Notes under the pieces: model-generated
What the model was told of the DNA's origin: nothing
Database searches by the model: none
The model's input: the letters and a program-made list of their open reading frames with translations, nothing else
Shown here: in pieces, positions 34,224 through 36,863 of the stretch
Numbering within the stretch: position 1 is the stretch's first letter
Layout: each line of letters opens with the position of its first letter
Program-made: the position numbers and the translations under genes
Source of the DNA: an uncultured Pseudomonadales bacterium
Lineage (GTDB): Bacteria > Patescibacteriota > Microgenomatia > UBA1400 > PJMF01
Reading direction: 5' to 3'
NCBI GenBank assembly: GCA_964583625.1
Contig: CAZOVA010000002.1
Coordinates: 29,452-93,451 of the forward strand
DNA: 64,000 bases

Positions 34224-34541
34224 CTATTTATTTTTAACAATCACTCCCACCTGATCAATTAAAGGAAAGTCTTGCCTAATCAAGTCCCAAAACTTTTCAC
34301 TTACTTTGGCTGAGTAAACAGAATTATTAGTTCTTTCCATACTACCACAAAGCCTTTTTTCCCAATTACGAGCCAAATGTAAAAAGTCACGACCCAACTG
34401 ATTGAATTTTGTCCTGTTTACTTCTGGATTAAGGGCAAAGTTTTGATGGACAGCGGCGAAATCGGCAAATAATTGATCCTGACTTTGTTTGAAAAGATTA
34501 TAAATTTGAGCTGTTTTTGTTTTTGCCATAATCGGTAGCAA
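34224..34541 (-). CDS. hypothetical protein
   Basis: 105-aa ORF downstream of the methyltransferase on the same strand. No family recognised. Confidence 0.3.
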   Translation of the reverse strand: MLPIMAKTKTAQIYNLFKQSQDQLFADFAAVHQNFALNPEVNRTKFNQLGRDFLHLARNWEKRLCGSMERTNNSVYSAKVSEKFWDLIRQDFPLIDQVGVIVKNK

Positions 34542-34677
34542 TTATACATGAGGTTAAAGAAAGAAAACAAGGAAAATTGAGAAGAAACTTGACCTTTAAA
34601 GTTTTTTGTCTAATATCATATATTATGCTTATGACTAAATTTAAATTATTTTACACTTTTTTAAGTCGTTCATATTT

Positions 34678-35685
34678 TTATATTACTTGAAATTCCATTT
34701 GTAAATTTTTCTTTTCTGCTTTTTCAACTCTCTCGCTCACTTTGAATAAATCTGGTTTTTTGTCTAATTCTTTTATTCGTCGTTCTGAAATTTTTACGTA
34801 TTTTTCATTTGCGTCAATTCCGATATAATTTTTCCCGAGTTTCTTTGCGGCTACTGCCGTTGTTCCGCTTCCAATAAATGGGTCAAGCACAATAGCATTT
34901 TTTGAAAAAGCTGAAAGTTTTATCAAATACTCGCAAACGGCCAATGGTTTTACGGTTTTATGGTCATTATATTCTCCTTTTTCTTTTTTGGTTGGTTTAG
35001 GGAGTAAAAATGCCTTGTCTATCAATTCGTTAATGCTCTCTATCGTAAAAACATTTGCCGGATACATATTGTTGCCAATTTTTACGTTTGTATTGAACAT
35101 GCCCACTTCGTGCTTAAGCATATTATTTAAATAGGTCTGATCGGTAGGTTTCTGTGCCATTGCGATTGGCTCAAAACAAGATTTTATTTGCGGAGTTTTC
35201 CAGCCATTTAGTTTTTCCTTGATTTTTTTCTTCGCTTTCTCGTCAATATTCATTTTCTTGATAAAATGGTCAACACTCATAGCTTTGGCTTGATTTTGAG
35301 TATAAAGCCACATAAACGCGTCTCGTATTTCAAAACCAGCGTCATCTATTGCCGAAGCCATTCGGTGGTAAAGCCGAGGGCTAGAAAAAGAAAAGAAAAA
35401 TCCTCCCGGCTTTAAAACTCTAAAAATTTCTTTTGAAATATCTAAATACCAAGCATAAAATCTTTTTCCTTGCTCTCTATCAAACTTCATTCCAGCAGGT
35501 AAAGATTTTATCGTGTATTGATTGCTTTGGTTAGAAACTTCCTCGTAATCCCAGTTATTATCTAATTTATCCAAAAAATATGGCGGGTCGGTCAAAACAA
35601 CATCAATAGAATTGTCCTCAATTTTAGGAAGTAATTCTAATGTATCCGCACAAATAATTTTATTTATGAATTTGTTATTTTTCAT
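34678..35685 (-). CDS. DNA methyltransferase (N6-adenine/N4-cytosine, beta class)
   Basis: Motif IV DPPY (VVLTDPPYFLDK) preceding motif I (VLDPFIGSGTTAVAAKKLG). This is the beta-group order of amino-methyltransferases. 3 nt after the upstream nuclease gene. Confidence 0.8.
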   Translation of the reverse strand: MKNNKFINKIICADTLELLPKIEDNSIDVVLTDPPYFLDKLDNNWDYEEVSNQSNQYTIKSLPAGMKFDREQGKRFYAWYLDISKEIFRVLKPGGFFFSFSSPRLYHRMASAIDDAGFEIRDAFMWLYTQNQAKAMSVDHFIKKMNIDEKAKKKIKEKLNGWKTPQIKSCFEPIAMAQKPTDQTYLNNMLKHEVGMFNTNVKIGNNMYPANVFTIESINELIDKAFLLPKPTKKEKGEYNDHKTVKPLAVCEYLIKLSAFSKNAIVLDPFIGSGTTAVAAKKLGKNYIGIDANEKYVKISERRIKELDKKPDLFKVSERVEKAEKKNLQMEFQVI

Positions 35686-35688
35686 AAA

Positions 35689-36429
35689 TCACTTTTTTAA
35701 ATTAGGATTTTTACCATTAAACTCGTTATATAAAATCTTGTAAATTTTTTGTCGCACATCTTTATCAAAATTTCTAACAAAATTTGCGTATGCCAATTTT
35801 ATAACTCTGCCTTTATCGTCATAAATCCACCTGTTTCTATCTCCTCTGTTACATTTTTGGCATTGCGGAATTATGTTTCCAGCAACAAGCGGCTTATTTG
35901 GGTCCATATGCGCTTTTTGCAGAATTGTTTTTGTCGCTGGCCAATGAAAATGAGGTTTTCCCTCTTGTGAGCCACAAGTGGCGCAACGAAAGTTATATTT
36001 TTCCTTTATCTCGCCCCAGTTATCGGTTTCCGAAATTCTATGCCCTTTCTTAAATCCGGGATACGGTTGCTCTAAAGTATAAAGTTGATACGATCCTCTT
36101 TCTATTCTCAAAACTATGTTATCGCGTCCACCAGCGACTATCCACCACCCCGCTTGCGCTCCTAAATGTCTAGCTTGTTGGACGTCGTTTGTATTTGGAT
36201 AATAACTTCTAACAAATTTTGTTAATTCTTCTTTGCTAACTTTACGAGTATTCGGATAATCATAAGTAAGATAAACCAAAACAAGAGCATCCTTTGTAAA
36301 ATTTCCCTGCGAGTCATAAAGTTTTGGCAACTTTACGCCAAACTGTTTTAAATACTTTTTGTGAAACTCACAAATTGTTTTATAAATACTCTCTATGGAT
36401 TTTTTGTTTAAAATGAGATTGTCTAACAT
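35689..36429 (-). CDS. putative type II restriction endonuclease with a Cys4 HNH (beta-beta-alpha-Me) nuclease motif
   Basis: CATCGSQEGKPHFHW...QKAHMDPNKP...NIIPQCQKCNRGDRN: CxxC...HxH...N...CxxC HNH signature. Operonic with the methyltransferase. AT-rich relative to flanks. Confidence 0.5.
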   Translation of the reverse strand: MLDNLILNKKSIESIYKTICEFHKKYLKQFGVKLPKLYDSQGNFTKDALVLVYLTYDYPNTRKVSKEELTKFVRSYYPNTNDVQQARHLGAQAGWWIVAGGRDNIVLRIERGSYQLYTLEQPYPGFKKGHRISETDNWGEIKEKYNFRCATCGSQEGKPHFHWPATKTILQKAHMDPNKPLVAGNIIPQCQKCNRGDRNRWIYDDKGRVIKLAYANFVRNFDKDVRQKIYKILYNEFNGKNPNLKK

Positions 36430-36536
36430 AGTTTTATTTTATTATATCTTCTATTCAATTATATGATACCAAATTATATAAAAACAAGCAAATTGATTTT
36501 GGGGGAGTTCCTTTCCCAAAACGGCGAAAGTTGCGA

Positions 36537-36613
36537 TTGGTGGCCGCTTAGGGACTCGAACCCCAGACCTACCGGATGTAAACCGGGCGCTCTAACCAAC
36601 TGAGCTAAGCGGC
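36537..36613 (-). tRNA. tRNA-Val (anticodon TAC), CCA encoded
   Basis: Reverse complement GGCCGCT-TA-GCTC-AGTTGGTTA-GAGC-G-CCCGG-TTTACAT-CCGGT-AGGTC-TGGGG-TTCGAGT-CCCTA-AGCGGCC-A-CCA. Anticodon loop TTTACAT. Confidence 0.75.
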
Positions 36614-36680
36614 CACAAGAGTAGTATTATAGCACGCTTCACTGTCAGGATCTAAAATAAGAAATTAATTTAAAAAAAGC

Positions 36681-36754
36681 GTGGACTCTAGAGGACTCGA
36701 ACCTCTGACCTTTGCAATGTCAATGCAACACTCTAACCAACTGAGCTAAGAGTC
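36681..36754 (-). tRNA. tRNA-Val (anticodon GAC)
   Basis: Reverse complement GGACTCT-TA-GCTC-AGTTGGTTA-GAGT-G-TTGCA-TTGACAT-TGCAA-AGGTC-AGAGG-TTCGAGT-CCTCT-AGAGTCC-A. No encoded CCA. Confidence 0.8.
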
Positions 36755-36863
36755 CAGAAACTTTCTCCTTATTATAACACGAAACACAAGAGGAAAAGAA
36801 GCCAGGATTATTTTGTAAAAATGAATTAAAAAATTAAACTAGAGACAAAAATTTATTTTTTTA

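Follow-up and report, generated by a model that had tools for sequence, protein, structure and literature searches.

A candidate type II restriction-modification cassette with a winged-helix HNH nuclease, inserted next to a tRNA-Val gene

We examined two adjoining genes on the minus strand of a 64,000-nt stretch of DNA (the window, by which we mean the whole stretch analyzed) from an uncultured bacterium that GTDB places in the Patescibacteriota. The first gene (35689-36429) encodes a 246-aa predicted nuclease, the second (34678-35685) encodes a 335-aa DNA methyltransferase, and the gap between them is only 3 nt (35686-35688). We concluded that the pair very probably constitutes a type II restriction-modification (R-M) cassette of about 1.8 kb, which lies in an insert of about 2.0 kb and was acquired horizontally, immediately 3' of a tRNA-Val gene with the TAC anticodon, tRNA-Val(tac). 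A first-pass annotation of the sequence had proposed such a compact, acquired type II system with an HNH nuclease of uncharacterised specificity, and this proposal is supported by empty sites in relatives, by the recurrence of the cassette in other genomes, by the linkage of the two genes and by the predicted fold of the nuclease. The two open reading frames (ORFs), with their coordinates, 3-nt spacing and strand, were also recovered as annotated in an ORF check. As in type II systems, the two genes are separate, adjacent and inherited together, and the S-adenosylmethionine (SAM)-binding and catalytic motifs of the methyltransferase are intact. The 335-aa methyltransferase is thus proposed, from its sequence and position, to be the cognate partner of the adjoining nuclease.

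The linkage was evaluated in 74 loci from GTDB species-representative genomes, each having at least 1 kb of sequence downstream of the nuclease. We observed that a homologous beta-class methyltransferase started between -10 and +44 nt after the nuclease in 70 of these loci, and at +152 nt in one more; in other loci, the overlaps between the two frames were of 4-11 nt. In two of the 74 loci (nuclease identity 73% and 69%), the same slot was occupied by a C5-cytosine methyltransferase (PF00145, E about 1e-77). The remaining locus was a decayed copy in an Omnitrophota genome (L070:5001-8616), where the nuclease was interrupted by an in-frame stop codon at W138, insertions had brought in a C5 methyltransferase and an unrelated ORF of 263 aa, and the amino-methyltransferase was reduced to its C-terminal half. 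This copy may have been caught partway through a methyltransferase swap. Homology (39-84% identity) links the amino-methyltransferase partners to one another, and the C5 partners are mutually 56-73% identical; comparison of the C5 partner with the PDB yielded only generic similarity to M.HaeIII, DNMT1 and M.HhaI, and no clue to specificity. Partnership or fusion with a C5 enzyme was seen for close (69-73%) as well as distant (39-42%) homologues of the nuclease (L074:24-1821, L086:2049-3990, L014:4001-5795, P0162).

Distant relatives of the nuclease (31-44% identity) were likewise paired with a methyltransferase, in either gene order or as a fusion. One had an overlapping C5 methyltransferase, one was fused to a C5 enzyme in a 581-aa product, and two followed a beta-class methyltransferase, so that the gene order was reversed. 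On two Thermus plasmids, a relative with 40-43% identity preceded a gene labeled 'site-specific DNA-methyltransferase' (L020:3806-5594, L021:3710-5490). These plasmids, pTthSNM1-7d and pTCCB09, are small, come from cultured strains and carry ParA, toxin-antitoxin and transposase genes in the neighborhood; their copies would be tractable sources for biochemical characterization. Among relatives from viruses, one on a viral contig had a convergent C5 methyltransferase nearby. In the neighborhood of another, a 201-aa protein encoded on a 173-kb viral contig (L103:5992-7222), we found a weak match to DruA (Druantia).

Members of this nuclease family nearly always come with a methyltransferase and accept partners of two unrelated chemistries, and in this the family behaves as would be expected of a restriction enzyme. 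The pairing with both classes suggests that one recognition site could be protected by two kinds of methylation. The first-pass annotation had allowed for the methyltransferase being an orphan with an unrelated ORF beside it, and the direct linkage in 70 of the 74 loci speaks against this. A related explanation is that an orphan or regulatory methyltransferase is accompanied by an unrelated, selfish HNH endonuclease of the homing or phage type that merely travels along. Homing endonucleases of the HNH type are widespread, phage HNH and endonuclease VII families gave the nuclease its only significant matches by sequence, and in a cassette that lacks a recombinase the nuclease itself could aid mobility. 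However, no intron or intein context was present at the loci, which also disposes of the homing context that the first-pass annotation had kept in view, and searches of viral collections turned up no more than two distant relatives. Moreover, the identities of nuclease and methyltransferase co-vary over 70 or more loci, and one nuclease family is found with methyltransferases of two unrelated classes, as a restriction enzyme in need of protection would be. We therefore consider the homing-type explanation extremely unlikely.

Further support for an R-M pair came from the alleles present within the species. Contigs of the same species from other samples were identified by a MiaA that was 100% identical and a 2.6-kb region that was 99.9% identical at the nucleotide level. 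Three independent disrupted alleles of the nuclease were observed; the contigs that carry them were assembled from related samples, so that their numbers are not independent counts. In the first (6 contigs), a G to A change at 35859 converts Q191 into a stop codon between C190 and C193; in the second (7 contigs), a 1-nt deletion at 36372 causes a frameshift near codon 20; and in the third (5 contigs), the frame is lost after residue 172, just before H174. Entries for disrupted alleles are L104:7402-8142, L105:7402-8142 and protein P0361. An exact-sequence look-up found the intact nuclease, which is the allele of the window, on 15 contigs. The methyltransferase was full-length on 32 of 32 contigs, in two alleles that differ by 1 nt. 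An R-M pair can decay viably by losing its nuclease and keeping its methyltransferase; the reverse loss would be lethal. Such asymmetric decay is expected of a real R-M pair, and we take it as indirect functional support.

The same data raise the possibility that the pair in the window is a dead remnant, or a methyltransferase-only epigenetic system that is becoming an orphan. A disrupted nuclease is found in about half of the copies assembled from this species, and the decayed copy in the Omnitrophota genome points the same way. However, the allele of the window is full-length with all family-invariant residues intact, the identical intact protein recurs on those 15 contigs, and the methyltransferase motifs are preserved. 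A remnant is thus an improbable description of this copy, and we give it very little weight.

The methyltransferase matched PF01555 (N6_N4_Mtase) with 121 bits against a cut-off of 26.7 (E=9e-35), and the PADLOC model MTase_II, a type II methyltransferase model, with E=1.6e-50. Motif IV (TDPPYF, aa 32-37, with D33-P-P-Y36) precedes motif I (FIGSGT, aa 270-275, with F270-x-G-x-G274), and this order therefore indicates the beta-class permutation. The Pfam match and the motif order agree with the beta-class amino-methyltransferase (DPPY before FxGxG) recognized in the first-pass annotation. The nearest relatives in the PDB were an N4C methyltransferase, M.MboIIA, DpnA and CcrM (E 1e-17 to 1e-5). 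TDPPYF and FxGxGT were invariant across nine partner methyltransferases, that of the window and those of eight other cassettes. The protein also has a long family-specific insertion at about aa 130-235, presumably the target-recognition domain. DPPY, rather than SPPY, favors N6-adenine as the methylated base, and members of the methyltransferase cluster are labeled 'adenine-specific' by JGI. The target is thus probably N6-adenine, with N4-cytosine as the alternative.

The nuclease is predicted to have two parts, an N-terminal helical and winged-helix DNA-binding domain (about aa 9-122) and a C-terminal Cys4 zinc-stabilized HNH (beta-beta-alpha-metal) domain (about aa 138-212). The motifs that can be seen in its sequence are C149xxC152, H160xH162, H174, N185 and C190xxC193-N194. 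When 84 relatives (27-87% identity) were aligned, the only invariant residues were C149, C152, H174, C190, C193 and N194, and N185 was conserved in at least 90% of them. A second alignment, of 80 sequences, yielded the same set of conserved residues, with N185 invariant. By their pattern, these residues read as the classic Cys4-zinc HNH signature, in which C149, C152, C190 and C193 are the proposed zinc ligands. H174 (in 'QKAHMDP') is most likely the catalytic histidine, because it is invariant across the family; conservation of H160-x-H162 is limited to the close subfamily. The first-pass annotation had taken H160 and H162 as the HNH histidines, and this part of its reading has to be replaced. 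Its candidate HNH nuclease with two CxxC pairs agrees well with the invariant residues and with the predicted fold.

In profile searches, the C-terminal part of the nuclease (aa 119-212) matched PHROG 1271 'HNH endonuclease' (E=1.6e-7) and PHROG 1035 'endonuclease VII' (E=1.9e-4). PF01844 (HNH) was the top Pfam match of the isolated C-terminal domain and was in the correct register (profile 1-44 of 47), and weak PF01844 matches were also seen in 8 of the 84 relatives. The full-length nuclease had no match in Pfam, NCBIfam or the PDB sequences, and no significant match among all PDB chains by phmmer and profile hmmsearch (E<=10). A PADLOC match to PDC-M01B (E=0.002), spanning 37 residues at the CxxC-N stretch, was too weak and too local to be used. 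An AlphaFold2 model of the nuclease had a predicted local distance difference test (pLDDT) score of 90.7, with a beta-beta-alpha arrangement at 170-197 formed by two strands (170-174 and 186-190) and a helix (191-197), all with pLDDT >90. The structural neighbors of the model were winged-helix proteins and the HNH domains of Cas9 (Foldseek probability 0.97), EcoKMcrA, Cap5 and PtuB. In this model, the nuclease has an HNH (beta-beta-alpha-metal) fold.

The presence of EcoKMcrA among these neighbors brings up the most serious of the rival explanations, that the nuclease is a modification-dependent type IV winged-helix-HNH (wH-HNH) enzyme, and that the adjacent methyltransferase is non-protective with a non-overlapping specificity. 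The type IV endonucleases of haloarchaea that depend on N6-methyladenine (m6A), such as SruGXI and HpaD253I, are wH-HNH proteins of 224-283 aa and are toxic in Dam+ cells (PMC11037411); in domain architecture and size they match the nuclease described here. JGI also labels one distant relative of the nuclease 'McrA'. However, these type IV enzymes stand alone, 87% of them having no methyltransferase within three genes and 13% having one (PMC11037411), whereas the nuclease family of the window is flanked by a methyltransferase nearly always, with frames that often overlap and are once fused. The repeated loss of the nuclease with the methyltransferase kept also fits a nuclease that is held in check by the methyltransferase, and neither DpnI nor any other known methyl-sensing winged helix showed similarity in the profile search of the PDB. 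We thus regard a type IV enzyme as very unlikely.

The position of the pair was compared in two syntenic relatives (L012 and L013), which were the closest by MiaA (53-56% identity) and were reached by protein search and contig look-ups; a scan of contigs with MiaA for empty sites had found nothing. In both relatives, the gene order was miaB, miaA, a 100-aa gene on the opposite strand, tRNA-Val(tac), tRNA-Val(gac), infC, rpmI, rplT, holB, pyk and tRNA-Cys, and the R-M pair was absent from the tRNA-Val locus. In the window, the pair lies just 3' of tRNA-Val(tac), with lysS, serS, miaB and miaA upstream and infC, rpmI, rplT and holB downstream. L013 represents a clean empty site: the 3' end of its tRNA-Val(tac), which is 100% identical to that of the window, runs straight into the ATG of the 100-aa gene. 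In L012, the slot 3' of the tRNA gene is occupied by an unrelated 174-aa ORF. By blastn, the DNA of the window is homologous to that of the relatives as far as 36540 and again from 34578 (L012) or 34529 (L013), and the homology of the cassette to unrelated genomes spans 36469 or below to 34691. The R-M pair is therefore an insertion next to tRNA-Val(tac), and the locus is not one conserved in all relatives, as the first-pass annotation had considered it might be.

Both boundaries of the insertion are host genes. On one side is tRNA-Val(tac) (36538-36614, minus strand), which is not part of the cargo; it is followed by tRNA-Val(gac) (36681-36755, minus strand), and both were identified by ARAGORN and Rfam, in agreement with the tandem TAC and GAC pair of the first-pass annotation. 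On the other side is a conserved gene of 101 aa (34224-34529, minus strand), whose start is probably M5 ('MAKTK') within a 105-aa ORF (34224-34541). L012 and L013 each have a counterpart of this gene in the equivalent place beside miaA, with 64-69% identity, and the gene does not accompany the cassette in the other contexts compared. As it is kept in relatives that have no R-M pair and is absent beside the cassette elsewhere, we assign the 105-aa ORF to the host core and not to the cargo; the first-pass annotation had considered that it might belong to the island. Between these genes and the cassette lie a leader of about 110 nt (36430-36539, minus strand), which runs from the 3' end of tRNA-Val(tac) to the ATG of the nuclease, and a 3' tail (34579-34677, minus strand), which runs from the stop codon of the methyltransferase to the point where homology to L012 resumes (blastn boundaries). 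Of this leader, other copies of the cassette share only the last approximately 40 nt (36430-36469). The leader (36430-36539) presumably carries a promoter; a consensus scan for promoters and terminators gave nothing above the shuffled expectation.

Two of the features associated with tRNA-targeted islands were observed, adjacency to a tRNA and absence in relatives, and two were not, an integrase and repeats of the tRNA 3' end. No integrase or recombinase ORF was found in the island, and searches for flanking direct or inverted repeats returned only short AT-rich chance matches. When other insertions of the cassette were examined, a tRNA on the same strand lay within 400 nt upstream in 5 of 67, as against about 1.4 expected, and downstream in 0 of 61. 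Adjacency to a tRNA is thus enriched but is not a rule. The landing site proposed in the first-pass annotation therefore stands as far as the position beside tRNA-Val(tac) and the absence in relatives are concerned, but integrase and att repeats are missing and an upstream tRNA is a minority arrangement. Composition was also evaluated. The GC content of the pair is 0.342, compared with a window mean of 0.376 (sd 0.022), which places it at the 5.5th percentile among windows of the same size. The pair is thus AT-richer, as had been annotated, but the effect is modest, and the GC content at third codon positions (0.30-0.31) is host-like and indistinguishable from that of the adjacent core genes. 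Its composition is only marginally atypical, and foreign origin is not established by composition alone.

Acquisition is more clearly seen from the distribution of the cassette. A sequence about 75% identical at the nucleotide level over window positions 36469-34691 was found in unrelated housekeeping contexts with unrelated flanks, in a groundwater contig and in bins of Altiarchaeales, Margulisbacteria and Berkelbacteria. When one genome from each GTDB species was scanned (alignment A1), 187 relatives of the nuclease were returned, and the distribution is described here from the best 80 of these, which have 61-94% aa identity. These 80 came from more than a dozen classes of Patescibacteria, about ten other bacterial phyla and Altarchaeum; the hosts outside Patescibacteria included Deltaproteobacteria, Gammaproteobacteria, Elusimicrobiota, Verrucomicrobiia, Planctomycetota, Cloacimonadota, Omnitrophota, Margulisiibacteriota, Bdellovibrionales and Altarchaeum. 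The high identity across phyla and domains therefore indicates frequent recent transfer, and the cassette is a mobile unit. The horizontal acquisition proposed in the first-pass annotation is well supported by this recurrence in unrelated contexts together with the empty sites. The whole nuclease family comprises 955 clusters at 90% identity and 427 at 50%, from 187 GTDB species, and its members are nearly everywhere labeled 'hypothetical protein', the distant 'McrA' named by JGI being set apart from these.

Two divergent copies of the cassette were present in single metagenome-assembled genomes (MAGs) of Altarchaeum (L052, L080), Omnitrophica (L098, L100) and Saccharibacteria (L035, L091). 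The two nucleases of the Altarchaeum MAG are 84% and 70% identical to that of the window. This hints that specificity may vary between nuclease subfamilies that are about 70% identical.

Taken together, these observations suggest how the system may work. The nuclease and methyltransferase genes would be co-transcribed, and the 3-nt gap here, along with the 4-11-nt overlaps elsewhere, suggests that their translation is coupled. The beta-class SAM-dependent amino-methyltransferase would methylate a short, probably symmetric, site on the host DNA; a symmetric site is suggested, since a single methyltransferase suffices. The N-terminal winged helix of the nuclease probably reads the same site, and the C-terminal Cys4-zinc HNH module probably cuts the DNA when it is unmethylated, with H174 acting as the putative general base, N185 in a structural role and N194 as a candidate metal ligand.

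Several observations weigh against an R-M function and were considered along with it. The numbers of contigs with disrupted alleles are drawn from related samples and do not count independently, although the three alleles are separate events. The PF01844 match of the C-terminal domain (14.4 bits) is below the cut-off of 21.4, and none of the curated restriction-enzyme models in Pfam, NCBIfam and PADLOC matches the nuclease. When we looked for avoidance of palindromes (4-, 5- and 6-mers, maximal-order Markov model), the window and 713 kb pooled from 81 cassette loci showed just a general depletion of palindromes, with no site that stood out and no cassette-free control for comparison. The wH-HNH architecture is the same as that of the m6A-dependent type IV enzymes (PMC11037411). 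The nuclease gene precedes the methyltransferase gene and no controller protein accompanies them, which leaves safe establishment in a new host unexplained. Finally, the 201-aa relative on the 173-kb viral contig has no adjacent methyltransferase. Even with these points, a horizontally acquired type II R-M cassette remains the explanation in which we have high confidence.

A few additional features of the locus were observed. The 101-aa gene is more conserved between the relatives (64-69%) than MiaA (53-56%), and it could not be assigned to a family, its sole match being a weak, sub-threshold YopR-like one. At L013:9170-9260, tRNA-Val(tac) ends at its 3' side with ...GCGGCCAC and the ATG of the 100-aa gene comes directly after, leaving no spacer for a ribosome-binding site, and the mRNA of this gene may be leaderless or may be released by tRNA processing. 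The spacer between the two tRNA-Val genes is 66 nt in the window (36615-36680) and holds cargo in both relatives (L012:9247-10937, L013:9290-10933). The cargo around tRNA-Val(tac) consists of the 174-aa ORF and a GH25 lysozyme in one relative, and of unknown ORFs of 351 and 144 aa in the other. The tRNA-Val pair is thus a local hot spot for cargo, with both slots around tRNA-Val(tac) being variable.

The type of system, a type II R-M system with an HNH nuclease, is already known; its interest lies in a large, widely exchanged and unannotated nuclease family, which is covered by no Pfam, NCBIfam, PADLOC or PDB entry and is a candidate source of a new restriction specificity. No relevant description of such an R-M system in Patescibacteria or Saccharibacteria came up in literature searches. 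Members of the family occur mainly in Patescibacteria and other uncultivated lineages, in which restriction barriers bear on the inference of phage-host pairs and on the genetic tools now emerging. The family also offers a natural example of methyltransferase-class swapping and, in one species, of the population-level asymmetric decay expected of a toxic nuclease and a protective methyltransferase.

HNH is the second most common fold among restriction enzymes, accounting for 8% of characterized and 30% of putative enzymes (Orlowski & Bujnicki 2008, PMC2441816), and the type II subfamilies with this fold include KpnI, Hpy99I, PacI, NlaIII, SphI, MnlI, HphI and Eco31I (PMC2441816). With these enzymes the cassette shares a beta-beta-alpha-metal nuclease and a separate methyltransferase gene, and with endonuclease VII and the Hpy99I-type enzymes it shares the Cys4 zinc scaffold. 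However, KpnI, Hpy99I and PacI do not have the N-terminal winged helix fused to HNH that is predicted here. The PDB chain set includes Hpy99I and PacI. Neither was returned when all PDB chains were searched with the nuclease (phmmer and profile hmmsearch, E<=10), and the Pfam scan gave no match to the NlaIII/IceA family (PF05315, ICEA) at E<=1. The KpnI-, Hpy99I- or PacI-like character given in the first-pass annotation is thus right as to the HNH type, but these enzymes are analogies only, as no similarity was found to solved (PDB) or curated (Pfam, NCBIfam, PADLOC) families. Modular enzymes of the FokI type also combine winged-helix recognition domains with a separate cleavage domain; however, FokI has a PD-(D/E)XK cleavage domain and needs methylation of an asymmetric site, whereas the nuclease of the window is predicted to be an HNH enzyme and has a single methyltransferase. 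The methyltransferase resembles the beta-class enzymes M.MboIIA, DpnA, CcrM, M.RsrI and M.PvuII in the PF01555 domain and in having DPPY before FxGxG, and differs from them in its long family-specific insertion (about aa 130-235).

The closest parallel in architecture is with the wH-HNH type IV enzymes, in which a winged helix is likewise followed by HNH and whose size range includes the 246-aa nuclease. The difference is that they stand alone, whereas the family of the window is almost always linked to a methyltransferase. This linkage suggests that methylation most likely blocks cleavage by the nuclease rather than triggering it. As a tentative proposal, less likely than not, the family could be the methylation-blocked, methyltransferase-linked counterpart of the wH-HNH type IV enzymes, in which the winged helix reads a short unmethylated site and the tethered Cys4-HNH module cuts at or near it. 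Protection could then come from amino- or C5-methylation, as close homologues (69-73% identity) have one or the other partner. On this proposal, the nucleases would form an experimentally uncharacterised family of restriction enzymes with a new specificity, carried by one of the most widely exchanged defense cassettes of Patescibacteria, other uncultivated phyla and Altiarchaeota.

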